From the NCBI GenBank assembly GCA_037131165.1, contig JBAXRO010000002.1, forward strand, positions 6,144 through 70,143: a stretch of 64,000 nt of DNA. Reading direction: 5' to 3'. Positions 4,285 through 45,222 of this stretch are shown here, piece by piece; within the stretch, counting starts at the first letter, position 1, and the number at the start of each line of letters is the position of its first letter. Under the pieces are notes generated by a model that did not search any database, was not told the origin of the DNA, and was given only the letters and a program-made list of their open reading frames with translations. A program made the position numbers and the translations under genes. The stretch is from Actinomycetes bacterium (GTDB lineage: Bacteria; Actinomycetota; Thermoleophilia; Solirubrobacterales; Solirubrobacteraceae).

Positions 4285-5235
4285 ATGGTGTCCTCCATGC
4301 CGACTTCATTGGTTACCGGCGGAGCCGGGTTCCTCGGCTCGCACCTCTGCGAGGCGCTGCTGGCGCGCGGTCATCGGGTGATCTGCGTCGACAACCTCGA
4401 GACCGGGTCGCTGGCCAACATCGCCCACCTGCGCCAGCCCGAGTTCGTCCACCTGAACATCGACATCATCGAGCCGTACCAAGTGGACGGCGAGATCGAC
4501 TTCGTCTACCACCTGGCTTCGCCCGCATCCCCGATCGACTACCTCAGGCTTCCGCTCCACACCCTGAAGGTCGGCTCCTACGGCACCCACCACACGATCG
4601 GCCTCGCCAAGCACAAGCGCGCCCGGTTCCTGCTGGCGTCGACCTCCGAGGTATACGGGGACCCCAAGGAACACCCCCAGCACGAGACCTACTGGGGCAA
4701 CGTCAACCCGATCGGCCCTCGCGGCGTCTACGACGAGGCCAAGCGGTATGCCGAGGCGCTGACGATGGCCTACCACCGCCAGCAGGGAGTCGACACTGCG
4801 ATCGTCAGGATCTTCAATACCTACGGACCCCGGATGAGGGCGCACGACGGCCGGGCGATCCCGACCTTCCTCCGCCAAGCCCTGCTCGGCCGTCCGCTTA
4901 CGGTGTTCGGGGACGGAAGCCAGACGAGGTCGTTCTGTTACGTCGACGACCTGGTGGCCGGCCTGATCGCACTCGCCGAGTCGGGAGAGCACGAGCCGGT
5001 CAACATCGGCAACCCCAACGAGTTCACGCTGCTCGAGGCAGCCGAGGCAGTCAGGAGGGTCACCGGTGCATCGTCGGAGATCGTCTTCGAGCCGCTGCCG
5101 ACCGACGACCCGCAGATCCGCCAGCCCGACATCACGCGGGCCCGGGAAGTGCTCGGCTGGGAGCCGACCACCGAGCTCGAGGAAGGCCTCCGGCTGACCC
5201 TCGCCAGCTCAGGAATCGAGCGCCTCACCAGCTGA
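4285..5235 (+). CDS. uxs: UDP-glucuronate decarboxylase (UDP-xylose synthase), SDR family
   Basis: [12 protein letters not shown] Rossmann motif, then [41 protein letters not shown] and [10 protein letters not shown], all typical of UXS. ATG 4297 is an alternative start. Confidence 0.8.
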
Positions 5236-5314
5236 CCGCAATCGCGGTTCGCGACGGGTACGGCCTACGACCGTAACCGGTCAGGGTTGCACCCGCACCC
5301 ACCGTGTCTGTAAC

Positions 5315-6868
5315 TTGGAGGCGGGGGTGTATTCAGTCCCGAGGGAGAGACGAGCGATCAGCGACCAAGGCATCAGCGAGGCGGGTTCGACCCGCACCGA
5401 ACGGGCCGGGCAGGCGGAAGCACCGGTGACCAACGGCTCAGGCCCCGCGACCAAGCGTGTCGGGCGTGACATCCGCTCGGGCAATGTCCCGACTCTGGCC
5501 CGCCTCCTGCACAAGCGGACCCTGCGGGCGATCGCCCGGGTCGCGATCCTGCTGGCCAGCGACTACCTCGCGATCGCATCGGCCCTGATCGGCTGGCTGG
5601 CTCTCAAGGCTTGGCTCAAGGGCGACTTCGATGCCGCGCTCGTCCGCGAACAGGTCAACAGCTACCTGACCTTCGCCTACCTCGTCTCGGTACTGATGCT
5701 CGCCCGCCACGACCTGTACAACGAGAGGGCAAGGCGCCCCGGCCTGCCCTCGATCGTCAACGCCCTCTTCCAGGCGACGGTCGTCACTCTGATCTTCGCC
5801 CTCGCCAACGGCGAGAAGTTCAACTCCTACTCGGTCTTCATCGGCGCGCTCGGCTTCGCGATCGTCACCGTCACGACGGCGCGAGCGCTCGTCGACAGGG
5901 GCACGGGCCGTCTGAGTGCCGAGGCCGGTCTGGCCCGCAAGGCACTGGTGGTCGGGACCGGCGACCACGCAGCGTCGGTCGCAATCGCGCTCGGCGAATC
6001 CAACCGCTGGCCACTCGAGGTGATCGGCGGCCTCACCGCACCGGAGGACGTGGTCGCGAAGCTGCGGCGCGGCAGCATCGACGCGGTGATCATCGCCGAG
6101 CCCGAGCTGCCACAGGAACAGGTCGTGCTCATGGCGGACGAATGCCACCGAAAGGGAGTGGAGGTGCACGTCGCCCCGACGACGATGGAGATCCTCCTGC
6201 AGCGCGGCCAGTTCCGCCCCGGGATGGCGGTTCCGCTGTTCACGCTCGACGCGCCGACCTTCGACGGGTTCAACTTCGCGATCAAACGGGCGTTCGACCT
6301 GATCGGGGCGATCGTCCTGCTGGTACTGCTCAGTCCGACCCTGCTGATCGTGGCTTTGGCCGTGAAGCTGACCTCGAAGGGGCCCCTGCTTTACCGCTCG
6401 ATCCGGCCGGGAATCGGCGAGCAGCCGTTCGCCTGCCTGAAGTTCAGGACGATGTTCGACGACGCCGACTCGCGGATGGACGACCTCGAGAGCCTCAACG
6501 AAGCCAGCGGCGCACTGTTCAAGATCCGCAAGGATCCGCGAGTGACGCCGATCGGGCGGATGCTGCGGCGGTTCTCGATCGACGAACTCCCGCAGCTGCT
6601 GAACGTACTGAGGGGCGAGATGAGCCTCGTCGGTCCGCGTCCCCTACCCGAGCGCGACTTCAGACTGCTCGAAGATTGGCACCGTCAGCGCTACCAGGTG
6701 CTGCCCGGGATCACTGGCCTCTGGCAGGTCTCCGGTCGCTCGGATCTCGACTTCGACGACCTCGTGCGACTCGACTTCGTCTACGTGGAGAGGTGGTCCG
6801 TGGGCCTCGACCTGCTGATCCTGCTGAAGACGTTTCCGGCAGTCCTGTCGCGACGCGGCGCGTACTGA
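5315..6868 (+). CDS. polyprenyl-phosphate glycosyl-1-phosphate transferase (WbaP/CpsE-type bacterial sugar transferase)
   Basis: C-terminal domain KRAFDLIGAIVLLVLLSP..LKFRTM..KIRKDPRVTPIGRMLRRFSIDELPQLLNVLRGEMSLVGPRP..PGITGLWQVSGRS. The start is uncertain: TTG 5315 is the longest option and GTG 5426 is possible. Confidence 0.8.
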   Translation: MEAGVYSVPRERRAISDQGISEAGSTRTERAGQAEAPVTNGSGPATKRVGRDIRSGNVPTLARLLHKRTLRAIARVAILLASDYLAIASALIGWLALKAWLKGDFDAALVREQVNSYLTFAYLVSVLMLARHDLYNERARRPGLPSIVNALFQATVVTLIFALANGEKFNSYSVFIGALGFAIVTVTTARALVDRGTGRLSAEAGLARKALVVGTGDHAASVAIALGESNRWPLEVIGGLTAPEDVVAKLRRGSIDAVIIAEPELPQEQVVLMADECHRKGVEVHVAPTTMEILLQRGQFRPGMAVPLFTLDAPTFDGFNFAIKRAFDLIGAIVLLVLLSPTLLIVALAVKLTSKGPLLYRSIRPGIGEQPFACLKFRTMFDDADSRMDDLESLNEASGALFKIRKDPRVTPIGRMLRRFSIDELPQLLNVLRGEMSLVGPRPLPERDFRLLEDWHRQRYQVLPGITGLWQVSGRSDLDFDDLVRLDFVYVERWSVGLDLLILLKTFPAVLSRRGAY

Positions 6869-10733: not shown

Positions 10734-10796
10734 CCGGATCGCATCGGGTCAGCGAACCGGACCCACCGGTTGTGACCGAATCGCGATGATCGAACC

Positions 10797-11501
10797 ATGT
10801 GCGGTCGCTACACGCTCACACTGAAGCGGGCGGATCTGGAGCGCTCCTTCCCGGAGGTTGTCTCGCTGCCCGAGGACCGTGTCTTCTGCGAGCGATTCAA
10901 CATCGCGCCCTCGCAGGAGGCGGTCGTGATCAGCCGTCCCGACGGCTCGCAGCCGACCGCCGAGCTGATGCGCTGGGGCTTGGTCCCACATTGGTCGAAG
11001 GGCCCGCAGGGAGAGGTGAAGATGATCAATGCCCGAGCCGAGACGCTCGCCGAGCGACCCGCCTACCGTGGCCTCGTCGCCAGCGCGTCGGGACGTTGCC
11101 TCGTGCCGGCCGACGGCTTCTACGAATGGCAGCAGGTGAAGCCTGGCACCAAGCAGCCCTGGCGCTACACGCTGGCCGACGGCGAGCCGTTCGCGTTCGC
11201 AGGCCTCTGCGAGACATGGACGCCGGCCGAGGGCGGCGAGCCGTTGAGGAGCTTCACAGTCGTGACGACGGAACCCAACAGCCTCGTCGCCGAAGTCCAC
11301 GACAGGATGCCCGCGATCCTCGCGACGGTTGAGGCGCGGGCGGCGTGGCTCGACAACGGACTGGAACCGGCCGCAACCCGCGAGCTGCTCGCCCCGCTCG
11401 AGTCCGGCGCGATGGCGGCCGAGCGGGTCAGCCGAGCGGTCGGGAAGCCCTCGAACGAAGGTCCGGCGCTGCTCGTCCCGGAGCAGCAGCAGCTCTTCTG
11501 A
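10797..11501 (+). CDS. SOS response-associated peptidase (SRAP/YedK family, abasic-site DNA crosslinking protein)
   Basis: N-terminal MCGRYTL with catalytic Cys2. NIAPSQ, MRWGLVPHWSK, INARAETL and CLVPADGFYEW motifs. Confidence 0.85.
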   Translation: MCGRYTLTLKRADLERSFPEVVSLPEDRVFCERFNIAPSQEAVVISRPDGSQPTAELMRWGLVPHWSKGPQGEVKMINARAETLAERPAYRGLVASASGRCLVPADGFYEWQQVKPGTKQPWRYTLADGEPFAFAGLCETWTPAEGGEPLRSFTVVTTEPNSLVAEVHDRMPAILATVEARAAWLDNGLEPAATRELLAPLESGAMAAERVSRAVGKPSNEGPALLVPEQQQLF

Positions 11502-20336: not shown

Positions 20337-21326
20337 ATGAACATTCTCGTCACAGGCGGAGCGGGCTACGTCGGATCGGTGAGCGCCCGGGTGCTGATGG
20401 CAGCCGGCCACCGGGTGACGGTGCTCGACGACCTCTCCCGGGGCCACCGCGAGGCGATCCCCGAGGGGGCCGACTTCATCGAGTGCGACCTGCTCGACCC
20501 GGCCTCGCTCGACCGAGCCCTGGCCGAAGGGCGCTTCGACTGCGTCCTCCACTGCGCGGCCCTCGCTCTGGTCGGCGAATCGGTGACGAACCCCGAGCGC
20601 TATTGGCGCACGAACATCACCGGCTCACTGAACCTGCTCGACTCGATGCGCTCGGCCGGGATCGGGACCCTCGTTTTCTCCTCGACCTGCGCAACCTACG
20701 GCGAGCCTGAGGTCGTGCCGATCGCGGAGGACTGCCCCACGCGCCCGGTCAATCCCTACGGCGAGAGCAAGCTCGCGGTCGACAGAATGATCACGGCAGA
20801 AGCGGCAGCGCACGGCCTCGCTGCGATCTCGCTGCGCTACTTCAACGTCGCCGGGGCGAGCGGCCCGTGCGGCGAGGACCACGAGCCCGAGACGCACCTG
20901 ATCCCCAACGTCCTGCGCGCCGCTCAGGGGAAGCTCGAGCATGTCAACGTGTTCGGGACCGACTACCCGACCCCGGACGGCACCGCGATCCGCGACTACA
21001 TCCACGTCGAGGACCTCGCTGACGCCCACATGCTTGCCCTCGAGCAGGCGCGACCGGGCGAGCACCGGATCTTCAACATCGGCAACGGCAACGGATTCAG
21101 CGTCCTCGAAGTGATTGAGGCTGCGAAGCGGGTCACTGGGCTCGAGATCAAGGTCGTCGAGGCGCCAAGGCGCGAGGGCGACCCGCCGATGCTCGTCGCG
21201 GCGTCACAGAGAATCAGGGCCGAGCTCGGCTGGGAGGCCAAGCGCCCCGACCTCGACTCGATGATCGCCGATGCGTGGGGCTTCGCTCAGGCGAGGCCCG
21301 ACGGCTACGGGGCAGAGTCGGTCTGA
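20337..21326 (+). CDS. galE: UDP-glucose 4-epimerase
   Basis: MNILVTGGAGYVGS, PVNPYGESKLAVDRM (YxxxK) and DGTAIRDYIHVEDLADAH. Confidence 0.85.
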   Translation: MNILVTGGAGYVGSVSARVLMAAGHRVTVLDDLSRGHREAIPEGADFIECDLLDPASLDRALAEGRFDCVLHCAALALVGESVTNPERYWRTNITGSLNLLDSMRSAGIGTLVFSSTCATYGEPEVVPIAEDCPTRPVNPYGESKLAVDRMITAEAAAHGLAAISLRYFNVAGASGPCGEDHEPETHLIPNVLRAAQGKLEHVNVFGTDYPTPDGTAIRDYIHVEDLADAHMLALEQARPGEHRIFNIGNGNGFSVLEVIEAAKRVTGLEIKVVEAPRREGDPPMLVAASQRIRAELGWEAKRPDLDSMIADAWGFAQARPDGYGAESV

Positions 21327-21997: not shown

Positions 21998-23104
21998 ATG
22001 GACGTGCTCGCCAAACACGCTCAGGCCAACGCGGTGTTCGCGCCTGTGCTCGAAGGCCGGGTCGCCGCATCCCACGCTTACCTGCTGCACGGCCCGGCAG
22101 GAAGCGGGCGCTCGGAGGTCGCAGCGCTGGTCGCGACCGCCTTGCTGGCCGAAGGGTCGGCCAGAGACGACACCGCGAGCCGGGTCGAGGCCCGGTCCCA
22201 CCCGGACCTCACCTGGATCACCCCGGCCGGCGCGAACGGCGAGGTACTGGTGGACGACATCCGTGACCGGGTGGTGGCTGCGGTCCCGATGACCCCGTTC
22301 GAAGCGAGGCGCCGGGTGTTCGTGATCGAGGGGGCCGACCGGATGAACGAATCGGCCGCCAATGCCTTCCTCAAGACGCTGGAGGAGCCGCCGGCCTTCG
22401 CGCACCTGATCCTGATCGCCGATTCTCTCGACTCCGTCATGCCGACGCTGGTGTCGCGCTGCCAGACGGTGAGGTTCGACCCGGCCGGCACGGCCGAGCT
22501 GGCAGCGATGCTGGAACGTGAGGGCGTCCCCACCGCGCTCGCACTCGAATGCGCAGAGCTTGCCGACGGTGACGGAGCCAGGGCCAAGATGCTCGCCGAG
22601 GACAGCGGCGGGACGCTCAGGCGCGGCGGCGAGGAACTGGCGCGCGCAGCCCTGACGGGCAGTTCAGCCACTGCGAGGCCATGGGTCGAGCTGATTGCAT
22701 CCGCCGCGGAGTTGGGAAAAGCCGCAGGCGAGGAAGTGCGAAGGGAGTCCGAGGAGCGGCTCGAGACGGCGGCGCGCAGCGAACGCTCGCGGATCGAACG
22801 CGATGCCGAGGAGCAGGGCAAGCGGGCTCAGCGCAGGGCCGAGAGCGCAGCGGTGGACCTCGCCCTGTTCATCGCCGAGTCGTGGCTGCGCGACCTCCAC
22901 AGGTCCAGCCTCGGTGCCGGTGACCTGATCGCCAACGACCGGCGTCGAGCCGAGGTGACTGAGCTTTCGCGCTCGACGGCACCGTCGCGGGTAAGGTTTG
23001 CGATCGACATGATCGGTCGGACCCGCCGGGCACTCCGGTTGAACGTAACCCGGGAGCTCGCGCTCGAGTCCCTCGCCCACCGCCTCGACGGCGTACTTCG
23101 ATGA
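21998..23104 (+). CDS. holB: DNA polymerase III delta-prime subunit
   Basis: HAYLLHGPAGSGRS, RVFVIEGADRMNESAANAFLKTLEEPP and LVSRCQTVRF. Confidence 0.8.
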   Translation: MDVLAKHAQANAVFAPVLEGRVAASHAYLLHGPAGSGRSEVAALVATALLAEGSARDDTASRVEARSHPDLTWITPAGANGEVLVDDIRDRVVAAVPMTPFEARRRVFVIEGADRMNESAANAFLKTLEEPPAFAHLILIADSLDSVMPTLVSRCQTVRFDPAGTAELAAMLEREGVPTALALECAELADGDGARAKMLAEDSGGTLRRGGEELARAALTGSSATARPWVELIASAAELGKAAGEEVRRESEERLETAARSERSRIERDAEEQGKRAQRRAESAAVDLALFIAESWLRDLHRSSLGAGDLIANDRRRAEVTELSRSTAPSRVRFAIDMIGRTRRALRLNVTRELALESLAHRLDGVLR

Positions 23105-23952
23105 ACCTCCTCGCGGCGTCCGGAGCGGCGGACATGAACGCGCTCGAGGCGATCGTCCTCGGGATCGTCCAGGGCCTGACGGAGTTCCTCCCGATCTCCT
23201 CGACCGCCCACGTGAGGATCGTGCCCGCCCTGTTCGGCTGGGGCGATCCCGGAGCCGCCTTCACTGCGGTGATCCAGCTCGGCACGATGGCGGCGGTCGT
23301 CATCTACTTCAGGGCCGACCTTTGGCGCATCTTCACGACCTGGCTGCGGTCGCTGCCGAACGCGGAACTGCGCTCGAGCCACGACGCGAAGATGGGCTGG
23401 TACATCCTGCTGGGCACCCTGCCGGTCGGGATCTTCGGCTTCATCTTCAAGGACCAGATCGAGACCGCCGCGAGGTCGCTGTGGGTGATCGGCACCGTGA
23501 TGATCCTGTTCTCTCTGGTGATGGCCTCGGCCGACCAGACGGCGAAGCGGACCCGAGCGGTCGAGGACCTCGACCGCAAGGATGCAGCGATTATCGGCCT
23601 CTGGCAGGCGCTTGCGCTGATCCCAGGGGTCTCGCGCTCGGGAGCGACGATCAGCGCCGGCCTTTTCCGCGGCCTCGACGAGGTCGCCGCAGCCCGATAC
23701 TCGTTCCTGCTGAGCGTGCCTGCGGTCGTGGCAAGCGGTCTGTTCGAGCTGAGGAAGATCGGCGAGGCTGGGGTTCACCCAAGCTTCGCGATGACCGCGA
23801 TCGCGGCACTGTTTGCCTTCATCTCGGGATACGCAGCGATCGCGTTCCTGCTGCGCTGGCTGACGACCCACAACCTGCGGCCGTTCGTCGTCTACCGGAT
23901 CGTCGTCGGGGCCGGGATCCTGATCCTGACCGGCTTCGGCGTCATTTCCTGA
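23101..23952 (+). CDS. uppP: undecaprenyl-diphosphate phosphatase
   Basis: IVQGLTEFLPISSTAH and LIPGVSRSGATI motifs. ATG 23101 forms an ATGA overlap with holB; ATG 23134 is the alternative. Confidence 0.85.
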   Translation: MNLLAASGAADMNALEAIVLGIVQGLTEFLPISSTAHVRIVPALFGWGDPGAAFTAVIQLGTMAAVVIYFRADLWRIFTTWLRSLPNAELRSSHDAKMGWYILLGTLPVGIFGFIFKDQIETAARSLWVIGTVMILFSLVMASADQTAKRTRAVEDLDRKDAAIIGLWQALALIPGVSRSGATISAGLFRGLDEVAAARYSFLLSVPAVVASGLFELRKIGEAGVHPSFAMTAIAALFAFISGYAAIAFLLRWLTTHNLRPFVVYRIVVGAGILILTGFGVIS

Positions 23953-34623: not shown

Positions 34624-35652
34624 TCAACCAAAGAAGATCTCAGCGTCCTCGAACAGAGTCGGGTCGAGAAGGCGCGGCTCCTCGAGCGCTCTTGAGAGCG
34701 GCTGGAGGGTGATCTCGGTTCCCGTCAGGGCGGCCATCACGCCGAACTGCCCGCCGAGCACTGCGCGGGCCGCCGCGAGACCGAGGCGGGTCGCGAGGAT
34801 CCTGTCGGTCGCTGTCGGCGTTCCGCCTCTCTGCAGGTGACCGAGGATCACGGCGCGGCAGTCGTAGCCCGTCCGCTCGGCTATCTGCTGCTCGAGCCAG
34901 ATCCCGACCCCACCGAGACGGGCGTGGCCGAAGGCATCGGTCTGCGCCCCTGCGGTGACAAGGTCCCCGCCGATCGGTGTCGCCCCCTCCGAGGTGACGA
35001 CGATCGAGAAGGAACGCCCGGTCTCGTGCCGGGTGCGCAGGTGCGAGCAGACCCGCTCGATCTCGAACGGGCGCTCCGGTACGAGGATCAGGTCCGCCCC
35101 GCCTGCCAACCCGGCCGAGCAGGCGATCCAGCCCGCGTGGCGACCCATCACCTCGACGATGATGATCCTGTCGTGCGACTCGGCAGTGGTGTGGAGGCGG
35201 TCGATCGCGTCGGTCGCGATCTGGACCGCGGTATCGAACCCGAAGGTGCGGTCGGTGCCGGGGAGGTCGTTGTCGATCGTCTTCGGCACGCCGACCACCG
35301 GCACTCCGTCGGCGGCGAGCTTGGCGGCTACCCCCAAGGTGTCCTCGCCTCCGATCGCGATCAGGGCGTCAACCCCGTCGGCGGCGAGCCTCGAGCGGAC
35401 CCGTTCCGTTCCGTCGGCTCCATCGGCGTAGGGATTCGTGCGTGACGAGAGGAGGATCGTGCCTCCCCTGGGGAGCAGGCCGGCGATGTCGGAGCGACCG
35501 AGCGGAACGGCTTCGCCCTCGAGCACTCCGGCCCAGCCTCGGCGGTAGCCGACCACCTCATGGCCGTCGGCGAGCACATCGCGGGCCGCGGCCCTGATCA
35601 CGGCGTTGAGCCCGGGGCAGTCCCCACCGCCGGTGAGCAGAGCGATCTTCAT
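34624..35652 (-). CDS. pfkA: 6-phosphofructokinase (ATP- or PPi-dependent; not distinguishable here)
   Basis: MKIALLTGGGDCPGLNAVIRA, IAIGGEDTLGVA, PKTIDNDL, VMGRHAGW and GHLQRGG. Confidence 0.85.
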   Translation of the reverse strand: MKIALLTGGGDCPGLNAVIRAAARDVLADGHEVVGYRRGWAGVLEGEAVPLGRSDIAGLLPRGGTILLSSRTNPYADGADGTERVRSRLAADGVDALIAIGGEDTLGVAAKLAADGVPVVGVPKTIDNDLPGTDRTFGFDTAVQIATDAIDRLHTTAESHDRIIIVEVMGRHAGWIACSAGLAGGADLILVPERPFEIERVCSHLRTRHETGRSFSIVVTSEGATPIGGDLVTAGAQTDAFGHARLGGVGIWLEQQIAERTGYDCRAVILGHLQRGGTPTATDRILATRLGLAAARAVLGGQFGVMAALTGTEITLQPLSRALEEPRLLDPTLFEDAEIFFG

Positions 35653-35721: not shown

Positions 35722-36003
35722 TCAGCCGACCGTCACGCCCTTCCAGAAGGCGACCCGACCGGCAATCTCGGCGGCAGCGTCCTTGGGCTGGGCGTAGTAC
35801 CAGGCGGCGTTCTCGTTGAGTTCGCCATCGACGCCGAGCGAGAAGTACTCGGCGGTCCCCTTCCAAGGGCAAACGCTCGTGTGCGAGCTCTCGACGAGGT
35901 ACTCGTCGTTGACCGAGCCGCGCGGGAAGTAGTGGTTTCCCTCGACGACCACGGTTTCGTCGCTCTCCGCGATCACTGCGCCGTTCCAGGTTGCCTTCAT
36001 CAT
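35722..36003 (-). CDS. DUF427 domain protein
   Basis: MMKATWNGAVIAESDETVVVEGNHYFP..CPWKGTAEYFSL..AAWYY. AAGGAGA lies upstream of ATG 36003/36000. Confidence 0.7.
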   Translation of the reverse strand: MMKATWNGAVIAESDETVVVEGNHYFPRGSVNDEYLVESSHTSVCPWKGTAEYFSLGVDGELNENAAWYYAQPKDAAAEIAGRVAFWKGVTVG

Positions 36004-36031
36004 CGCTCTCCTTCGGTATCGCCTTGATCGG

Positions 36032-36418
36032 GTGAGGTCGGCCGCGACGGCCACCGACGTTCTTCCGAGGTCAACGAGGTTACGGCTGCCGCAGCGCCTG
36101 CGATCTTGCGAGGCCGTGCGAGAGCGACTTGGAGCGGCATGGCTTCACTACCGGCGCCTGACTCGATCGGGTTGGCCGAGAGACTTTCCGATCGCGCAGC
36201 TCCCCAACCCGCCTCTGCTCGTCGCGATCGTCGGCTGGCTGGTCGGCGCGCTTGCCGGCGGTGAGGTTCACCGAGCCGGGCGGGCCGTCTTCTACATCGG
36301 CCTGTCCGTCTGGGCATGGGAGGAACTGACTTCGGGAGTCAACTGGTTTCGACGGCTCATCGGTGCCGGACTGCTCGTATGGCTGGCCGCGCAGATCGCA
36401 TCGTCACTGCCTGCGTGA
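36032..36418 (+). CDS. small hypothetical membrane protein
   Basis: The C-terminal 90 aa contain three hydrophobic segments: PPLLVAIVGWLVGALAGG, AVFYIGLSVWAW and LIGAGLLVWLAAQIA. The start is unclear (GTG 36032 or GTG 36116). Confidence 0.4.
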   Translation: MRSAATATDVLPRSTRLRLPQRLRSCEAVRERLGAAWLHYRRLTRSGWPRDFPIAQLPNPPLLVAIVGWLVGALAGGEVHRAGRAVFYIGLSVWAWEELTSGVNWFRRLIGAGLLVWLAAQIASSLPA

Positions 36419-36476
36419 ACCGGCCTCACGGACTACGATTCACGAGTCGGTGCCTTCTCGCCGAGGCACCGGCAAT

Positions 36477-36549
36477 GCCGACGTAGCTCAGCTGGTAGAG
36501 CACTTCACTCGTAATGAAGGGGTCAGCGGTTCGAATCCGCTCGTCGGCT
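36477..36549 (+). tRNA. tRNA-Thr (anticodon CGT)
   Basis: Manual cloverleaf. Acceptor GCCGACG/CGTCGGC. D arm GCTC-agctggta-GAGC. Anticodon arm CTTCA-ctCGTaa-TGAAG. Variable gggtc. T arm AGCGG-ttcgaat-CCGCT. Discriminator T. No encoded CCA. Confidence 0.9.
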
Positions 36550-36553
36550 CTCA
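36503..36553 (+). repeat. direct repeat copy 1 (3' half of tRNA-Thr plus 4 nt)
   Basis: The 51-nt segment from the anticodon stem to 4 nt past the tRNA end recurs at 38089-38139 with 2 mismatches. Confidence 0.9.
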
Positions 36554-36591
36554 TGCAGAAGTCAACCGGGAACCGGAGACCGGGCCCAGCC

Positions 36592-38085
36592 ATGAGGTTC
36601 CCCCGCATGACCGCCGACATGGCGTGCTTGATCTCATTGGTTCTCCTGACCGCGATCGGGGCCGCCCTGCGCCTCTGGCAGATCCGAAGCGGACTCTTCG
36701 GGGACGAGCTCTACGCATTCAGCGAAACCGCGGGTGCGAGCTTCGGCGAAGTGCTGGAGAACGTCAGCCAGAAGAGCATCGAGGTGACGCCTCCGCTGTT
36801 CTTCGTCCTGGCAAGTGCGGCGGAACGGCTGGGCGATGCCGCCACGACCGTGCGAATCCCCTCCGAAGTTGCAGGGATCCTGCTGATACCCGCCATGTTC
36901 GTGCTCGGGAAGGCCGGGGTCGATCGAAGGGTGGGCCTCGTCGCGTCAGCACTCACGACATTCAGCGTCTACGGCATCTACTACTCGGTCGAAGCCAGGC
37001 CTTACTCGCTCTTGATGCTCTTCTCCGCGGTGTCGACGATCTGCCTGTTCAAGCTGATCGACCAAGGGAGGCGAAGATGGCTTGTCGGCTACTCCCTGGC
37101 CTCGGCCGCAGTCCTCTACACCCACTACTCCGGTGTTGGAGTGCTGGCTGCCCAGTTCGGGTGGGCGGTCTGGTTTCACCGGGACCATTGGCGGGGACTC
37201 GTCGCGGGGAACCTCGTCGCGGGGCTTCTCTTCCTCGTTTGGGTCCCTTCGATCAGCCTCAAGGAAGGGGCCAAGGCGACAGTCGACCCGTTCAGCCCCG
37301 GAGTCGAGTCGCTCGTCAGCTGGGCCCGGCAGCTGGTGACCCTCCCCTACGGCGACGCTGGCTTCACCGATCTGCCCGGGATCCCATCCCTCGTAATCCT
37401 GGGACTCTGCCTGACCGTCGGTGCCGTCGGAACGGCGGTTCGCCAGGGGGACCGTGCCTACCGGTTGCGTCCGGGTTCCACCCAGGCGCTCTTTCCGGTC
37501 CTGATGCTCGCGTCGCCCGCCTTCATGTTGCTGGCTTCGTTGGCGACCGGACTCGGGTTCCTCCAACCCCGCTACTTCAGCGCTTCATTCCCGGCGTTGA
37601 TCGTCACGGTCTCGGCGCTTCTTGCGATGTCCGATCGACGACTCGGGATCGTCATCTCGGGCGTCGCAGTAGCGGTTTCCGCGTTCAGTGCAGTCAAGGC
37701 CCAGCAGCCCAGGTACCAACGCCCTGACATGCGTGCGGTCGCCCGTTGGGTCGACGCACCCGGCCCGCGAAACGCAGTCATTGCCGACTGGATCCTGCCG
37801 TACAACGGCCAGAACACCCTACGTCCCTACCTCGAAGTCCCCGCGCGCGACAGGTCGGCCTTTCCGCTCGGGAACGGGATCTCTCAAGTCGAAAACGCAT
37901 CCCTGATCGGAGCCGACGTCGTGCTCGTCACGAACGCTGGTTTCCTGAGGGAGACTGAACGGTCGATCACGTCGAACCCCCGGTATCGCCTGAAGTTCGT
38001 GAGGACGGCCCGCTGGCCCGGGCTGGTCGGCGGAATTCGCGCGTCATGGTTCGTCTTTACCGGTTCGAAGCCCGCAAAGCAATAA
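36592..38085 (+). CDS. GT-C fold glycosyltransferase (PMT_2/ArnT-like, polyprenyl-phosphate-sugar dependent)
   Basis: Polytopic membrane protein with an early-loop GDELYAF (DE motif), then YYSVEARPYSLLML and YTHYSGVGVLAAQFGWAV. It is a paralog of the 43714-45222 product. The start is uncertain (ATG 36592, 36607 or 36619). The part of track ORF 36514 upstream of ATG 36592 runs through the tRNA 3' half and is not coding. Confidence 0.65.
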   Translation: MRFPRMTADMACLISLVLLTAIGAALRLWQIRSGLFGDELYAFSETAGASFGEVLENVSQKSIEVTPPLFFVLASAAERLGDAATTVRIPSEVAGILLIPAMFVLGKAGVDRRVGLVASALTTFSVYGIYYSVEARPYSLLMLFSAVSTICLFKLIDQGRRRWLVGYSLASAAVLYTHYSGVGVLAAQFGWAVWFHRDHWRGLVAGNLVAGLLFLVWVPSISLKEGAKATVDPFSPGVESLVSWARQLVTLPYGDAGFTDLPGIPSLVILGLCLTVGAVGTAVRQGDRAYRLRPGSTQALFPVLMLASPAFMLLASLATGLGFLQPRYFSASFPALIVTVSALLAMSDRRLGIVISGVAVAVSAFSAVKAQQPRYQRPDMRAVARWVDAPGPRNAVIADWILPYNGQNTLRPYLEVPARDRSAFPLGNGISQVENASLIGADVVLVTNAGFLRETERSITSNPRYRLKFVRTARWPGLVGGIRASWFVFTGSKPAKQ

Positions 38086-38088
38086 CCC

Positions 38089-38139
38089 CTTCACTCCTAA
38101 TGAAGGGGTCAGCGGTTCGCATCCGCTCGTCGGCTCTCA
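38089..38139 (+). repeat. direct repeat copy 2: orphan 3' half of tRNA-Thr (att-like)
   Basis: cttcactcCtaatgaaggggtcagcggttcgCatccgctcgtcggctctca has 49/51 identity to copy 1. Differences are G to C in the anticodon and A to C in the T-loop. No 5' tRNA half lies upstream. It begins 3 nt after the GT-C stop. Confidence 0.9.
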
Positions 38140-38185
38140 CCTTATTGCGCAACGTGAGACTGACACCGGACATCGATTGCTCTGG

Positions 38186-38191
38186 TACTTT
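38186..38191 (+). promoter_or_regulatory. -10-like box TACTTT, 7 nt upstream of GTG 38199
   Basis: tacttt, then cgtgctt, then GTG. Confidence 0.35.
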
Positions 38192-38198
38192 CGTGCTT

Positions 38199-40493
38199 GT
38201 GCTTCGAAGCGGAAGGACCCGAGTGGCGATGGCGGTCTTGGCCGCCGTTCTCGCCGCCCCGGCATCGAGTGCCTCCGCTGTGGACGTCGCGACACAGTTG
38301 GACGCGGGCGTCGGAGCGTCGAGCTCATTCGTCGGCGGTGGGCACACCTGCGTCGTCACCACGACAGGCGGGATCAGATGCTGGGGCGACAACTCAACCG
38401 GCCAGCTGGGGGACGGCACCTTCGACCAGCGAACGAGTCCGGTCACGGTCTCCGGGGTGTCGAACGCCGTGCAGGTCGCGAGCGGCGGCGACCACAGCTG
38501 CGCCCGCGTTACCAACGGGGACGTCTACTGCTGGGGCGACAATACCTTCGGTCAAGTCGGCTCGGACCCGGAATCGGTGGCCAACTCCGCCACCGCCGTC
38601 AAGGTGGTCGGGGTGAGCGGGGCGACCGCGATCACAGCCGGCTCGCAACACACGTGCGCGCTGCTTCCAAACAAGACCGTCTCATGCTGGGGCAATGGCC
38701 TGTGGGGTGTGCTGGGAGTCGATGACGCGAACGGCAACTCGAGCTTCACCCCGCTCGCTGTGACCGGCCTCACCAACGTGACCCAGATCGCGGCCGGGGC
38801 AAGCCACACCTGCGCGTTGAGCGAATCAGGGGGCGTCAGCTGCTGGGGAAGCAACGACTCCGGCCAGCTCGGTATCGGGACGCTCGAATGGATGCCGCTG
38901 CCGACCTCGATCGCCGGACTCACCGGGGTTGCGCAGCTCGCAGCCGGTGCGACCAACACCTGTGCGGCGATGACCGACAGATCGGTCAAGTGCTGGGGCG
39001 ACAACACCTTCGGCCAGATCGGCGACGCCACCGACACGAACCGCCTCACTCCCACAGCCGTGAGCGGACTGGCCGACGCTACCTCCGTGACTGTCGGCGA
39101 CAGCTTCGCCTGCGCCCGGCTGGGCGGTGGTTCGGTCAAATGCTGGGGGGTGACCGACCCTGGCAGCCAGTGGTGCGAGGTCCTCTCCGGCACGTTGAAG
39201 AACTGCTTCAGCATCGTCGAGTACGGCGACCGAAGCCTCGACCCGACGATCGACCTCGCCGTCAACCCGGCGGCCGTCTCCTACACGCCGAAGGCAATCA
39301 CCGGGATCGCGGATGCCGCCCAACTGTCGGCCGGCGACAGGCACCTGTGCATTCTGCGAGTCAACAGCAGCGTCGCCTGCCTGGGACTCAACGCCTACGG
39401 CCAGCTGGGCGACAAGACAACCACGGCCACGTCCGCTCCGGTCGCCGTCGCGGGCCTCGGAGCCACGTTGCCTCCCCCGACCGTCACGGGCGGTGTTCCG
39501 GCGGCGTTCACGAAGCTCACGTCGGCGACGATCTCCTTCACCGGTGAGGCGAAGTCGACATTCACCTGCTCGCTCGACGGGGGCAAGCCCGCGACCTGCA
39601 CCAGCCCGCGCAGACTCACCCTCCTCAAGGACGGCACGCACAGCCTCTCGATCGTCCAGAAGAACCAATCCGGCGTCTCGAGCACGCCGACGGTGGTCAC
39701 CTGGACAGTCGACACCAAGGCACCGGCAGCGCCGACCCTCAGCGGAGCCCCAACACCGTTCACCAACCTCAAGAACGCGTCGATCGCGATCACCGGAGAG
39801 ACCGACGCCATCCTCTCCTGCTCGATCAACGGCGGCCCGTTCAACCCCTGCGCCAACCCCACCACACTCAACTCACTCCCCGACGGCACTCACTCCCTCA
39901 CCGCCCGACAAACCGACCGAGCCGGCAACACCAGCCCCAACGCGACTGCCAACTGGACAGTCGACACCAAGGCACCGGCAGCGCCGACCCTCAGCGGAGC
40001 CCCAACACCGTTCACCAACCTCAAGAACGCGTCGATCGCGATCACCGGAGAGACCGACGCCATCCTCTCCTGCTCGATCAACGGCGGCCCGTTCAACCCC
40101 TGCGCCAACCCCACCACACTCAACTCACTCCCCGACGGCACTCACTCCCTCACCGCCCGACAAACCGACCGAGCCGGCAACACCAGCCCCAACGCGACCG
40201 CCAAGTGGGTGGTCGACACGATCGCGCCCAGCCTGACCCGGAAGGTCGCTGGCTACATCACCCGCAGGGGGACGACCACTTCGATCGCCCTGCAGCCGGC
40301 CAAGGACCCGTCGGGGATCGCGTTCGTCGAGTATTCGACAGCGACCGCTTCGCCAGCGCCAACAGCCGAGCCGATCACCGCGAACGTCGTCAAGTATGAA
40401 TCGCCCACGGTGATCAGAAAGTCCGTCGCCGTCAAGTGGCTGCGGATCCGGGACGGCGCCGGAAACACCTCCCCCTGGTACCGAGCGACCTGA
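38199..40493 (+). CDS. secreted RCC1-repeat (seven-bladed propeller) protein with three Ig-like repeats
   Basis: Signal (M)LRSGRTRVAMAVLAAVLAAPASSASA. Seven CWG-type blades: IRCWGDNSTGQLGDG, VYCWGDNTFGQVG, VSCWGNGLWGVLG, VSCWGSNDSGQLG, VKCWGDNTFGQIGD, VKCWGVTD and VACLGLNAYGQLGD. These are followed by three 84-aa repeats of the form F.C..DGG....C....L..L.DGTHSL. GTG 38193 is an alternative start. Confidence 0.8.
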   Translation: MLRSGRTRVAMAVLAAVLAAPASSASAVDVATQLDAGVGASSSFVGGGHTCVVTTTGGIRCWGDNSTGQLGDGTFDQRTSPVTVSGVSNAVQVASGGDHSCARVTNGDVYCWGDNTFGQVGSDPESVANSATAVKVVGVSGATAITAGSQHTCALLPNKTVSCWGNGLWGVLGVDDANGNSSFTPLAVTGLTNVTQIAAGASHTCALSESGGVSCWGSNDSGQLGIGTLEWMPLPTSIAGLTGVAQLAAGATNTCAAMTDRSVKCWGDNTFGQIGDATDTNRLTPTAVSGLADATSVTVGDSFACARLGGGSVKCWGVTDPGSQWCEVLSGTLKNCFSIVEYGDRSLDPTIDLAVNPAAVSYTPKAITGIADAAQLSAGDRHLCILRVNSSVACLGLNAYGQLGDKTTTATSAPVAVAGLGATLPPPTVTGGVPAAFTKLTSATISFTGEAKSTFTCSLDGGKPATCTSPRRLTLLKDGTHSLSIVQKNQSGVSSTPTVVTWTVDTKAPAAPTLSGAPTPFTNLKNASIAITGETDAILSCSINGGPFNPCANPTTLNSLPDGTHSLTARQTDRAGNTSPNATANWTVDTKAPAAPTLSGAPTPFTNLKNASIAITGETDAILSCSINGGPFNPCANPTTLNSLPDGTHSLTARQTDRAGNTSPNATAKWVVDTIAPSLTRKVAGYITRRGTTTSIALQPAKDPSGIAFVEYSTATASPAPTAEPITANVVKYESPTVIRKSVAVKWLRIRDGAGNTSPWYRAT
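39701..40198 (+). repeat. perfect tandem duplication, 2 x 246 bp at 252-bp period, inside the RCC1 gene
   Basis: 39701-39946 is identical base for base to 39953-40198 (compared by eye line by line). A diverged third copy lies upstream at about 39470-39700. Confidence 0.9.
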
Positions 40494-41552: not shown

Positions 41553-42266
41553 TTGGCGGATAACTCCCCGCCCCACCTGCGGCTTGGAGTGACTAAACCC
41601 GATTCACCTCAGGAGACGAACTCTGAGCCTTCGTCACGTCGGCGCAGCTTGCTTGCCGCGCTCCTGTTGATCGTTGCGGTCGGGCTGCTCTGGCTGGTCG
41701 CGGTGACAGCCGGAGACGCGCCCGGGGATCGTCGGATCGACGCTTGGGCGCAGAGGCTGTTCTACGACTGGCGGGTGGATGGCCCGCGCGACGGGGCGGC
41801 CGTCCTCACCTGGCTGGTGGACTCCCTCAAGGCGATCGGGGACCCCCTGCCGGCCGCCCTGCTGACCCTTGGCGCGGTCGCTGCCGTCGCCCTGAGGATG
41901 GGACCGAGGTACGGACTCCTCCTGCTCTCAGCTGCCACCGTCGGACTAGCGACGACCGCGATGAAGATCGTCGCGCCGCGACCCGGAGTCGCCGATGGAA
42001 CACCGAGCTTCCCGAGTGGCCACACGGCCTATGCCACCGCCGTCCTCGGCACTGCCGCCGCGCTGGCCATCGAACGCGGCCATCGCCGCACAGCGGCGGC
42101 AGCGTGCGCGGCGATCTTCCTGATGGGGGCGACTCGGGTGATCGGCGGCGGCCACTGGCTGAGTGACGTGCTCGCCGGCTACGCGCTCGGCGGGGCATGG
42201 CTGCTGCTGATCCTCGCCTTCGGGATGCCGTGGGCAAGGAGAGGTGGCGACGGGGTCAAGGAGTGA
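41553..42266 (+). CDS. PAP2 family (type 2 phosphatidic acid / polyprenyl-diphosphate) phosphatase
   Basis: Three PAP2 motifs: KIVAPRPG, FPSGHTAY and TRVIGGGHWLSDV. TM-rich. TTG 41553 or GTG 41589 start. Confidence 0.75.
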   Translation: MADNSPPHLRLGVTKPDSPQETNSEPSSRRRSLLAALLLIVAVGLLWLVAVTAGDAPGDRRIDAWAQRLFYDWRVDGPRDGAAVLTWLVDSLKAIGDPLPAALLTLGAVAAVALRMGPRYGLLLLSAATVGLATTAMKIVAPRPGVADGTPSFPSGHTAYATAVLGTAAALAIERGHRRTAAAACAAIFLMGATRVIGGGHWLSDVLAGYALGGAWLLLILAFGMPWARRGGDGVKE

Positions 42267-42285
42267 ACTGTCAGGATCGGGCTCG

Positions 42286-43680
42286 ATGACCGCCAGCGGC
42301 TACTTCAACGGTCCGTGGCCAGCCGAAGACGGCGGCGCGCGGCGACTCCAAGCACCCCATGGTGAGCAGGGCCTCGGTATCGAGGCCGGCGAGTCGCTCT
42401 CCGTCTTGGCGGCACGCAGGGTCGGCGGAATCCAGATGATCGTCCGCGGCCCCGGGGACTCGATGTACGCACTGCGATCGATCCTCGGTCGCAGGGCGTT
42501 GCTCGACCCGGCGGAAACAGTGATCGAGCGGATCGACCCAATCACGCTCGAGTCTCTGGCCGAATCGCCCAGCCTGCCTGCTGGCCCCTGGTGGGCAGGA
42601 GGTCTGGCCGTCCTCGCCGACGGCGGAGTCGTCGCGATCAGCGGGCGCTGGGCCCACCGACTCGATCCCGACTCACTGCAGCCGACAGCCGCACGGGAAC
42701 TCCCTGTTGACGCCCCGTACAACTCATTCGTCGCCCTCGCCGACGGGACCCTCGTGACCAAGGACTTCGACCGTTCGCTCAACCGTCCCGCGACGCTTCT
42801 CGCACTGGACCCAGTCACGCTGGAAGACCGGGCTTCCCCCCTCCGCCTGCCCGAGACCGTGATCGCGCGGCTCAGCGCCGACTCGACAGAGATCTACGCG
42901 GTCGGGGTCAACCGCGCGATGAGGATCCGCTGGGATGGAGCCGATCTCTCCCTCGACGATTGGCAGCACCACTACCGGACCGGGTCAGGCGGCGGCTACG
43001 GATGGGACCCGGTGATCGCAGCCGGGAGACTGTGGTTCCTCGATCAGGGGCGCCACCGCTTCCGCCTTTCGATGCGCGGCTCCGGACTCGACAAGGGGCC
43101 GGTCAGGCTGCACTCGATCCCACTGGACGACGCATCCGGCGCGACGTCTGTCGTGATCTGCGGCGAGCCATACGGGGCGATCACCAACCCGCCGCTGATC
43201 GACCCGGAAAGGATGATCGCCGTCGGCTACGACACGGCCAACGGCAGGATGACAGCGTTCGACATCCCCGAAACGCCATCGGCCGAACCGACGCCGAGAT
43301 GGCGCAAGGCGATCGACAGCGGGCCTCACCTGTTGCGCTGGGCCGAGACCGGCGAGATGCTCGCCTGCGACCACAGGGCCCCCTGGCCGCTCGGGACGAG
43401 GTCCGGATCGCGCCTGCTCGACACCGCACTCTCCGATGCGTTGCGCCTGTCGGGAGAGCGCACTCCACACCTCGAACCGAAGCTCGCCGAGCGGCTCGCC
43501 GGCGAGGACGCCGTCGTGCTCGACATCGAGACCGGCGAGGAGAAGGGACGAGCAAGACTGCCCGTGCTTTCGCAGTCGGTGATGTTCCCGACGGCAGGGG
43601 CCAACCGAGACGCGATCCTGACGACGATGACAGCGATATTCAGGGTCGGGCCGGGCAGCCCGAAGCCGATCCAGACCTGA
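42286..43680 (+). CDS. hypothetical protein (no signal peptide; beta-rich, possibly propeller-like)
   Basis: 464 aa with good codon bias. Recurrent ADG.(V/L)V strands: LADGGVVAISG, LADGTLVTKD. No recognised catalytic motif. Confidence 0.6.
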   Translation: MTASGYFNGPWPAEDGGARRLQAPHGEQGLGIEAGESLSVLAARRVGGIQMIVRGPGDSMYALRSILGRRALLDPAETVIERIDPITLESLAESPSLPAGPWWAGGLAVLADGGVVAISGRWAHRLDPDSLQPTAARELPVDAPYNSFVALADGTLVTKDFDRSLNRPATLLALDPVTLEDRASPLRLPETVIARLSADSTEIYAVGVNRAMRIRWDGADLSLDDWQHHYRTGSGGGYGWDPVIAAGRLWFLDQGRHRFRLSMRGSGLDKGPVRLHSIPLDDASGATSVVICGEPYGAITNPPLIDPERMIAVGYDTANGRMTAFDIPETPSAEPTPRWRKAIDSGPHLLRWAETGEMLACDHRAPWPLGTRSGSRLLDTALSDALRLSGERTPHLEPKLAERLAGEDAVVLDIETGEEKGRARLPVLSQSVMFPTAGANRDAILTTMTAIFRVGPGSPKPIQT

Positions 43681-43713: not shown

Positions 43714-45222
43714 GTGGAGGAGCGGGAGCCAGTCAAGCGACCCACCGGGCCTCGCTGGGCGGCAGCGGTTGGACTGATAACGCTGCTCGCGGCCGTGCCG
43801 AGACTGATCGCGATGAGGGAGGGCCTCGCCTGGGACGAGCTCTACCTCTACTCGCTCGTTCACGACCAGGGCCTCGGGGCGATGCTCGATGCCGTCCGCG
43901 CAACCGAGAAGACGCCGCCGCTCGGGTTCGTGACGGCCTGGCTTCCGGACCGGCTGGGCGGACCACCCCAACTGATCAGGCTGCCCGCACTGATCGCCGG
44001 GCTCTCGTTGGTGCCACTGACGGCCCTGCTCGCCAGGCGAGCCTTCGGCTCAACAGCCGGATTGGCCGCCGCCGCCCTGGCGGCCGCCAGTCCGTTCCTG
44101 CTGTTCTACTCGGTCGAAGCTCGCTCCTACTCGCTCACCGCGGCCCTCGCGCTCGGATCGACCCTCCTGCTGTTGAGGGCGCTCGACAACGCCTCGAAGC
44201 GGGACTGGGTCGCCTACTCGTTGCTCGGCGCGGCGGCGTTGATGAGCCACTACACGGCCGTGTCGGTGCTCGCGGTCCAGTTCGGCTGGGCGTTGGCGAC
44301 TCGCCCCGACCGACGTCGGGCCGCGCTGCTGGCGCAGGCCGCCCCGCTCCTCGCCACTCTCGCCTGGCTGCCCTCGATGGCCGATCAGGTGCGCAACTCC
44401 AGTGACGAGCTGGCCCGGCTCTCCGCCGCGGCTCCGCTCTCGCTCGACACTCTCGGCAGGCTGATCGGACGCACCCTGGTCGGCAACCCGTTCGTCGCGC
44501 TCGACCGGGTTCCGGGATCAGCGGCGCTCGTAGCGATCGCGATCGGAGCGACGATCGCCGCGGGATTCGCGCTCGCTCGCTTTGTCGAATGGTCGAGGCT
44601 CGACGAAAGGCCGAAGCCGAAAGCGGAGACGATGCTGCTTGTCCTGATCGCGGTCGCTCCGCTGGCATTGGCCCTGCTCGTCAGCCTGCAGCCGAAGCAG
44701 AGCATGCTGCTGCCGCGGAACGTCCTCGTCGGCCTGCCCGCCGCGCTCGCGCTGGTTTCGGCACTGCTGGTGAGGCCGCCGCGGCCCGCTGCCGCCGCGG
44801 CCTGCGCGCTCGTCATCGGAGGCCTCGCCGTCGGCTCCGCCGTGGCCTTGACGGAGGGGCGCCGCCCGGCATCGCGCGAGGCCGCGCTGGCCGTCTCCTC
44901 GCGCTGGAAGCCGGGAGACAGGATCCTCGATCTCTGCTGCATCGCTGGCGCACGCGGCCCGCTCGGGACGGCAGTAGCGATCAACCTGCCCGAGGACAGG
45001 AGAGCCGCGCTCTCCATCGTGACCCTTCGTGGAAACGGGATCTACGACGAGGTACTCCGTGAGCGGGGCCGCCTGTTTGTGATCGGATCAAGGATCGAAG
45101 GCAACAAGGACCTGATCCTGTTCAGCCCCCCGAAGGGATGGCCGGATGCCTACCGTCCGGTTTGGAGCAAGCGCTGGCCCGGGGTCGTCGAGACGGAGGC
45201 GATCGAGTACGTCCCCCGCTGA
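43714..45222 (+). CDS. GT-C fold glycosyltransferase (PMT_2/ArnT-like), paralog of 36592-38085
   Basis: WDELYLY in the first loop, FYSVEARSYSLTAAL and SHYTAVSVLAVQFGWAL align with the equivalent motifs of the first GT-C. About 11 or more TM segments. Confidence 0.65.
   Translation: MEEREPVKRPTGPRWAAAVGLITLLAAVPRLIAMREGLAWDELYLYSLVHDQGLGAMLDAVRATEKTPPLGFVTAWLPDRLGGPPQLIRLPALIAGLSLVPLTALLARRAFGSTAGLAAAALAAASPFLLFYSVEARSYSLTAALALGSTLLLLRALDNASKRDWVAYSLLGAAALMSHYTAVSVLAVQFGWALATRPDRRRAALLAQAAPLLATLAWLPSMADQVRNSSDELARLSAAAPLSLDTLGRLIGRTLVGNPFVALDRVPGSAALVAIAIGATIAAGFALARFVEWSRLDERPKPKAETMLLVLIAVAPLALALLVSLQPKQSMLLPRNVLVGLPAALALVSALLVRPPRPAAAAACALVIGGLAVGSAVALTEGRRPASREAALAVSSRWKPGDRILDLCCIAGARGPLGTAVAINLPEDRRAALSIVTLRGNGIYDEVLRERGRLFVIGSRIEGNKDLILFSPPKGWPDAYRPVWSKRWPGVVETEAIEYVPR

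Follow-up and report, generated by a model that had tools for sequence, protein, structure and literature searches.

Cis-mobilizable elements (CIMEs), described for example in Streptococcus thermophilus, are derivatives of integrative and conjugative elements (ICEs) that keep flanking attachment (att) sites and carry no integrase. Genes can also share transcripts with tRNAs, as in thrU-tyrU-glyT-thrT-tufB of Escherichia coli. Islands integrated at tRNA genes are recognised, by the Islander principle, from a regenerated tRNA gene and a displaced fragment of it, and anticodon-centred attP sites (the 'A' class of att sites) with 3' fragments are the majority class among mapped tRNA islands (PMC4383910). 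Here, we describe a 1586-bp segment in a 64-kb stretch of actinobacterial DNA (the window) that lies between an intact tRNA-Thr(CGT) gene and a displaced copy of its 3' part, and that holds a single glycosyltransferase (GT) gene. We give an even chance to the explanation that this segment is an integrase-less single-gene mini-element, brought by integration-type recombination to a tRNA-Thr hot spot.

The sole tRNA that ARAGORN calls in the window is this tRNA-Thr(CGT), at 36477-36550 (+); Rfam RF00005 scores 72.1 bits on 36477-36549, the extent of the intact gene, which does not encode the CCA. From tRNA position 27, where the anticodon stem begins, to position 73 and the trailer CTCA, the last 47 nt of the tRNA and 4 trailing nt (36503..36553, plus strand, the attL-like side) recur in the same orientation at 38089..38139 (the attR-like side), and 49/51 nt are identical (96%). 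Both differences fall where the first-pass annotation of this DNA had put them, in the anticodon and the T loop: at 38097, a G to C change hits the middle anticodon base (position 35), and at 38120, an A to C change hits position 58. Between the copies, perfect blocks of 8, 22 and 19 nt remain. When as many as 3 mismatches are allowed, a 32-mer taken from the repeat matches at just two places in the window, against 0 expected from 100 shuffles. The displaced copy lacks the 5' 26 nt of the tRNA, ARAGORN calls no tRNA at 38089-38139, and in the Rfam tRNA model the fragment reaches 22 bits, where the gathering score is 29. It cannot therefore work as a tRNA, as had been supposed from its two changes.

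The bracketed interval (36503/36554 to 38088/38139) is filled by one open reading frame (ORF), a GT-C / PMT_2 glycosyltransferase gene (36553..38085, plus strand), whose product matches PF13231 (PMT_2) over residues 67-219 with 40.2 bits (cut-off 26.1). Its stop codon, TAA at 38083-38085, lies 3 nt ahead of the second repeat copy, and the non-coding margin between ORF and repeat is 3 nt at either side. Inside the 1586 bp there is no integrase; the PMT_2 ORF stands alone. Thus, the earlier description of one GT-C gene that ends 3 nt from the repeat, in a segment without integrase, holds for the interval, and by Pfam its second half extends to the whole window.

Four relatives inform on this locus, all of them metagenomic contigs (L103, L112, L081 and L113). 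In species-representative genomes, the nearest relative of the PFK encoded upstream of the tRNA is only 67% identical and belongs to a Solirubrobacteraceae metagenome-assembled genome, and a large protein collection holds PFKs at 81-99% identity to that of the window. The tRNA-Thr sequence itself is 100% identical in the window, L081, L103 and L112. L103, a 530-kb contig whose PFK is 87.7% identical, reads DUF427 gene, small membrane ORF, tRNA-Thr(CGT) and then directly RCC1-repeat gene, pentapeptide-repeat gene, PAP2 gene, a gene for a 458-aa protein, second PMT_2 gene and purT; the locus has neither the first GT nor a second tRNA copy. L112 (2.5 kb) shows the same empty arrangement, although it is short and its bin may mix contigs of several strains. 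The DNA directly after the single tRNA is homologous, in both, to what follows the fragment in the window (native DNA at 38140..38198, plus strand), and for L112 the identity is 80.7% over 88 nt (38140-38228). Because a single tRNA-Thr runs straight into the window's post-fragment DNA, L103 and L112 are empty sites, and the 1586 bp are a genuine presence/absence difference bounded by the repeat. The comparison of empty and occupied sites that the first-pass annotation had proposed is thus positive. A collapsed assembly loop is an unlikely source of the empty site, since the L103 contig is 530 kb long.

Other origins of the repeat were considered and rejected. Misassembly is ruled out by the longest exact block common to both copies, which is 22 nt. 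A dispersed tRNA-derived repeat family, named earlier as the finding that would overturn an integration, is ruled out too: the window has two copies, and among 118 loci the motif sits at tRNA-Thr loci or fragments only. Nor is the fragment an intrinsic terminator. It folds into an anticodon arm and a T arm (-21.3 kcal/mol, z = -3.1), and an upstream ACCC lengthens the anticodon arm to 9 bp, but on the plus strand it is not followed by a T-run, and the lone terminator-like call concerns the minus strand.

How could such an arrangement come about? In the explanation that we favour, the 1586 bp would have been inserted into the 3' two-thirds of the tRNA-Thr(CGT) gene by recombination inside the segment that runs from the anticodon stem to the tRNA 3' end. 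The tRNA would have been regenerated at the left, and its original 3' part pushed to the right, where it would still be joined to the native RCC1-side DNA. The geometry would be that of an anticodon-centred attL/attR pair of the tyrosine integrase type. An intact tRNA with a same-orientation 3' fragment downstream speaks for this course of events, and so does the place where the fragment begins. For anticodon-centred att sites, such a left boundary in the anticodon stem is what one expects (PMC4383910), and it is common to two element-associated fragments of L113.

L113, reached with the DUF427 protein P0147 as anchor, comes from a 24-kb contig of lower GC (ERZ19026147 scaffold_2961), and its DUF427 protein is 80% identical to that of the window. 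Over the 12 kb read, ARAGORN finds no intact tRNA-Thr, and a pattern search reveals three tRNA-Thr pieces (5870-5942, 6361-6406 and 10742-10787, all on the minus strand, with the DUF427 gene between pieces). One, a perfect 3' fragment, is followed directly by the gene of a secreted Kelch/Big_13 protein and a pentapeptide gene; the others are a decayed 3' fragment and an orphan decayed leader with a 5' half that breaks off just past the anticodon. The two 3' fragments start like the window copy, with CTTCAC at position 27/28, and each is preceded by one member of a 132-nt repeat pair (80% identical; 6404-6535 and 10787-10918), which would be the end of an inserted element. This same anticodon-stem start, next to a repeated element end, argues that the boundary is att-like rather than random. 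In fact, a random deletion would end within +/-1 nt of position 27/28 in about 3/74 cases (~4%). L113 seems to preserve the remains of successive integrations or rearrangements at this tRNA, and in the explanation that we favour, tRNA-Thr(CGT) has served repeatedly as an integration site in this clade.

The distribution of the gene bears on the direction of the event: the GT is present in the window and L081 and absent from L103 and L112, which takes fewer events under gain. We infer that an integrase took part and that the event was a gain rather than a loss. As to its age, fourfold-degenerate sites are only 48-71% identical between the window and L103 or L112, and the fragment differs from the tRNA at 2/51 positions. 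It follows that the fragment arose long after the empty-site lineages split off, unless selection kept it as a tRNA until recently or it has been protected or homogenised by gene conversion. Dated by intergenic DNA alone (19% raw divergence), an old fragment is compatible with the data (P ~0.12).

Several observations weigh against an integration. Among about 55 ORFs of the 64-kb ORF set that were scanned against Pfam, none has an integrase, recombinase, excisionase or transposase domain. There is no arm-type or other non-coding element DNA, since 3 nt separate the ORF from each repeat. Viral contigs have no match to the tRNA 47-mer, a 31-mer, the GT or the L113 element end. The GT has GC3 (G+C at third codon positions) and codon usage that are ordinary for the host, and in L081 the composition of the ortholog likewise suits its lower-GC host. 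The start at 36553, which places the gene right against the tRNA, is likely rather than certain; a GAGG stands 9 nt before the ATG at 36607. Finally, two features of L081 point the same way: its distal repeat is a complete tRNA, which fits a tandem duplication at least as well as an att site, and nucleotide identity between window and L081 is 71.6% for the GT and 71.4% for the flanking PFK and DUF427 genes. As the divergence of the GT equals that of its flank, vertical descent with later losses is compatible with the data.

L081 thus deserves a closer look. It is a 5.5-kb contig (PFK 85% identical) in which no integrase, excisionase or transposase domain was found, and it lies more than 1 substitution per synonymous site from the window. 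Its PFK, DUF427 and tRNA-Thr(CGT) genes are followed by an ortholog of the GT (65% identical), an 88-nt spacer, a second tRNA-Thr(CGT), complete and identical to the first, and an acyltransferase gene on the other strand. The left junction is alike in both: discriminator T, then CTC or CTA, then ATG, so that in L081 too the ATG comes 3 nt after the first tRNA. The full second tRNA departs from the classic pattern of a partial att site and allows for an origin without an integrase. In such a vertical history, which we regard as possible and on balance doubtful, the ancestor of the window and L081 would have had tRNA-Thr, GT and tRNA-Thr in a row, with no integrase ever involved. RecA-type recombination between the 74-nt identical copies would have deleted the GT precisely in the L103 and L112 lineages, and a recent deletion of ~110 bp in the window would have taken the spacer along with the first 26 nt of the distal tRNA, with two substitutions in that copy since. 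The GT would now be shielded from loss, with perfect blocks of just 8, 22 and 19 nt.

Much fits this history well: the same junction in L081, where the GT is followed by an 88-nt spacer and a second, complete tRNA; a GT divergence equal to that of the core neighbours; a composition ameliorated in both hosts; the failure to find an integrase; and a C-run after the stop codon at both loci (TAACCCC in the window, TAAATACCCCCC in L081). Near-identity at all but 2 of 51 positions would also be natural if the fragment was a selected tRNA until recently. But the deletion must run exactly from 3 nt past the stop to tRNA position 26, a ~4% coincidence with the boundary seen in L113, and besides one gain the history calls for one or two precise and independent losses among the relatives nearest to the window. 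Moreover, at fourfold sites between window and L081 the GT is somewhat less diverged than PFK (42.0% vs 31.6%, z ~2.1), a hint that the GT copies may share a slightly more recent ancestor, both values being near saturation (~29%). A four-point comparison of PFK pairs the window with L103 and L081 with L104 (28.7 vs ~37 summed percent differences); by flank nucleotide identity the window, L103 and L112 are roughly equidistant. The claim of site-specific integration made at first sight therefore stands in part: the empty sites and the att-type boundary are with it, the lack of an integrase or phage relatives and the two complete tRNAs of L081 are not.

Composition tells us where the gene did not come from. 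The GC3 of the GT is 0.798, compared to 0.843 +/- 0.041 for 46 other ORFs (z = -1.08), and its Karlin codon-bias distance ranks 27th of 47 ORFs. The greater use of A/T-ending codons noted by eye is thus weakly there and not atypical. GC3 follows each host, with 0.80 in the window and 0.65 in L081. Because its composition is host-like and an ortholog sits at an identical junction in another lineage, the GT would be no fresh import from a distant donor and rather a member of the clade's flexible pool of cell-envelope genes. One could then imagine that occupied and empty alleles were simply swapped by homologous recombination in the flanks (PFK/DUF427 on one side, RCC1 on the other), the repeat being a historical scar. 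The host-like composition, the cell-envelope gene neighbourhood and a presence/absence polymorphism that spans lineages with 80-90% flank identity would suit such an exchange, but it leaves the origin of the scar itself unexplained and has four informative loci in all to draw on; we give it a slim chance.

Is the segment then what is left of something larger? The first-pass annotation had wavered between a single-gene cassette and the stump of an island, and of the two it is the integrase-less one-gene element that we favour. In the stump scenario, which we consider very improbable, a multi-kb integrase-bearing island or prophage entered tRNA-Thr and lost all but one cargo gene. The attL/attR-like geometry and the empty sites would be explained, and larger, decaying insertions do exist at the same tRNA in L113. 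Membrane glycosyltransferases are also common cargo beside the att sites of serotype-converting phages, as in the Shigella gtr clusters at thrW. But two separate deletions must have stopped within 3 nt of the ORF, one on each side, and the same one-gene content and left junction recur in L081 at more than 1 synonymous substitution per site; the unit was therefore already minimal long ago, which disfavours a stump. The typical composition, the absence of a viral relative and a PHROGs profile search without match go in the same direction.

How does integration at tRNA-Thr without an integrase compare to the described systems? Like Islander-type islands, the locus has an intact tRNA and a same-orientation 3' fragment that mark its ends, a block of identity that starts at the anticodon stem and reaches the 3' end, empty sites in relatives, and a tRNA that has been hit repeatedly in a related lineage (L113). 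Unlike them, it is an order of magnitude too small at 1.6 kb, and it has one gene, no integrase, no arm-type DNA and no compositional signal. In fact, Islander's integrase and length filters would reject it (PMC4383910). The closest described category seems to be that of the integrase-less, att-flanked CIMEs. The segment shares with them the att-like direct repeats at the 3' end of a conserved gene and the lack of recombination and transfer genes, and by analogy it could move only if an integrase were provided in trans, or by accretion with an element of a related kind. Unlike described CIMEs, it is much smaller, and the 64-kb window holds no cognate ICE or integrase. The mini-element could be CIME-like and reliant on an integrase in trans, or it could be a fixed remnant. 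With a longest perfect block of 22 nt between the copies, which is about as short as RecA recombination can use efficiently, or shorter, the GT is effectively fixed in the window lineage. There is also a likeness to integron cassettes, in that one promoterless ORF with almost no non-coding DNA is linked to one short structured recombination site. An integron gene cassette is nonetheless ruled out, as there is no IntI, attI or attC architecture and the repeat is direct and tRNA-derived.

The locus is a real, well-delimited insertion scar at a tRNA-Thr hot spot with one domesticated GT, and as such it is fairly ordinary. Its unusual aspects are limited to the juxtaposition of tRNA and AUG and to the full and partial variants of the second tRNA. 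It matters as a coordinate-exact example of how a tRNA hot spot gains and loses a cell-envelope GT, taken from a high-GC actinobacterial lineage that has been little sampled, and as a reminder that integrase-based island finders overlook such mini-insertions. If the tRNA-AUG junction is functional, it offers a simple case for leaderless expression that depends on tRNA processing; if it is not, we are looking at an ordinary scar of tRNA-targeted recombination.

Where does the GT begin? The ATG at 36553 (510 aa), 3 nt after the tRNA discriminator, is the likely start, judged by alignment. The alternatives are 36592 (497 aa) and, picked by the gene caller, 36607 (492 aa). With the start at 36553, the N-terminus aligns without gaps to the orthologs P0002 and P0003 (66% and 65% identical), 25 aa to a conserved Cys, and in L081 the lone start before the first transmembrane segment (TM1) is the ATG 3 nt after the tRNA. 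Since there is no room for a promoter or a Shine-Dalgarno sequence between tRNA and ATG, the gene is probably transcribed from the tRNA promoter. The closeness of the GT start to the tRNA implies co-transcription and release by tRNA processing, much as in a tandem of tRNAs with an interposed gene, an arrangement that L081 has, with its two identical tRNA-Thr around the GT. The window is unlike a tandem tRNA duplication in that its distal copy is a fragment without positions 1-26, and its 3-nt spacing of tRNA and gene is much tighter than in operons of the thrU-tufB type. Processing of the tRNA 3' end would free a GT mRNA with a leader of 0-3 nt, essentially leaderless. We infer co-transcription and leaderless expression from this layout.

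Conserved features upstream of the tRNA fit transcription from its promoter. A candidate -10 element, TACGAT (36434..36439, plus strand), fits TANNNT and is kept at equal spacing in the relatives: it is spelled TACGAT in L103 and L112 and TAAGAT in L081, at an unchanged distance to the tRNA. A sigma-70 consensus scan upstream of the tRNA found no full promoter. Between this element and the tRNA, alignment with L103 and L081 brings out a conserved leader hairpin, GGTGCC-TTCTCGCCGA-GGCACC (36449..36470, plus strand), which ends 6 nt before the mature 5' end and has counterparts at L103:7711-7690 (minus strand) and L081:2306-2327. The 10-nt loop TTCTCGCCGA is invariant among the compared loci, and the stem covaries: both sides are altered in L081 (GGTGCC/GGCACC to GGCGCC/GGCGCC), and in L103 a change on one side gives a G-U pair. 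In L081, the second tRNA has no such hairpin ahead of it. The hairpin could have a role in the processing of the pre-tRNA or in its regulation.

These features invite a bolder reading, which we deem rather unlikely: the tRNA-Thr 3' segment and one ORF would together form a self-contained integrase-less cassette, in which the segment serves as a portable att site and as an expression signal. The att site would be used by a tRNA-Thr integrase acting in trans, or RecA would act between tRNA copies. This would explain why the same minimal GT module has the same junction in two lineages, with a full tRNA copy in one and a partial copy in the other. As for the expression signal, 3' processing of the tRNA so close to the AUG (3 nt) would leave a GT mRNA without a leader, a bacterial analogue of mitochondrial tRNA punctuation, and the same low probability covers both halves of the proposal.

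How widely does this GT keep company with a tRNA? A metagenome scan with the GT alignment found L082 alone as close, on the same contig as L081, and none of twenty distant PMT_2 loci from that scan has a tRNA nearby; the tRNA adjacency is therefore specific to this GT orthogroup. Anchored on PFK, a scan of the species-representative genomes found tRNA-Thr beside PFK in 0/27 loci. The PFK relatives L104-L110 have other synteny and no tRNA at the locus, and L111 is too short to inform. On the P0002 contig (ENA ERZ21849424, 9724 bp), the gene table puts the GT in another context, downstream of a 617-aa Ig-like protein gene. A gap of 93 nt before the GT is just enough for a tRNA plus 3 nt, and on the downstream side, where a convergent gene is 8 nt away, a second tRNA copy would not fit. 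With a tRNA in the gap, this locus would be a fourth state.

What the enzyme does can be surmised from its family. An acidic pair, D38-E39, is invariant in an alignment of the GT, three orthologs and the paralog described below. This N-terminal D-E motif falls where the first extracytoplasmic loop after TM1 is expected, a feature of the GT-C fold and PMT_2. An NCBIfam search with the GT gave a single match, to Agl23, below threshold. The enzyme presumably takes its sugar from a polyprenyl-phosphate donor and adds it to a glycan or a protein of the envelope. Envelope-glycan genes lie elsewhere in the window (4285-6868, 20337-21326 and 23101-23952): they encode two NAD-dependent sugar epimerase/dehydratases, a Bac_transf priming sugar transferase and a BacA undecaprenyl-diphosphatase, and they are consistent with a GT acting in a polyprenyl-linked pathway.

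Upstream of the tRNA lie the PFK gene (34624-35652, minus strand), the DUF427 gene (35722-36054, minus strand) and a 128-aa membrane ORF (36032-36418, plus strand). After the fragment, the plus strand carries in order an RCC1-repeat gene, a pentapeptide-repeat gene, a PAP2 phosphatase gene, a gene for a 478-aa protein and a second PMT_2 gene, followed by purT on the minus strand. The first of these, the native neighbour of the tRNA (38199..40493, plus strand), encodes a secreted protein with Pfam matches to RCC1, WD40_RLD and Big_13, and comparison with L112 makes GTG at 38199 its likely start. The second PMT_2 GT (43714..45222, plus strand) is a paralog, 30% identical to the inserted GT; it is part of a conserved core cluster outside the insertion, and its ortholog is 80.7% identical in L103 and is also found in L104. 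The proposal that the tRNA opens an accessory cluster is refuted, because L103 keeps the downstream genes in order at an empty site, and L104 does so partly.

The ORF lists hold a trap for annotation. The same peptide, MKGSAVRIRSSAL, appears in them twice, at 36514-36552 and at 38100-38138, and an ATG within the tRNA and within the fragment opens long ORFs at 36514-38085 and 38046-40493. These N-terminal extensions, which read through tRNA sequence, are artefacts that could mislead gene callers.

Other changes have occurred nearby. In L103 (8157-10004), the DUF427 gene is called at 62 aa and apparently disrupted, and an extra 1.5-kb ORF (491 aa, no Pfam match) separates it from PFK, whereas the two are only 70 nt apart in the window. 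The locus thus has a second indel. Further downstream, the 478-aa protein (42244-43680) is without Pfam or NCBIfam match, and in the window as in L103 and L104/L105 its gene is always beside that of the second PMT_2, next to purT. Between window and L103, identity of the 478-aa protein is 87%, and that of the second PMT_2 goes down to 48% between window and L104. The two form a conserved two-gene module. Finally, the RCC1/Big_13 protein gene contains a near-perfect tandem duplication at 39715-39988, with a 252-nt period that encodes an 84-aa Big_13-type unit; the duplicated peptide starts APAAPTLSGAPTPF and ends DRAGNTSPNATA. This duplication suggests a recent expansion of a surface-exposed domain.

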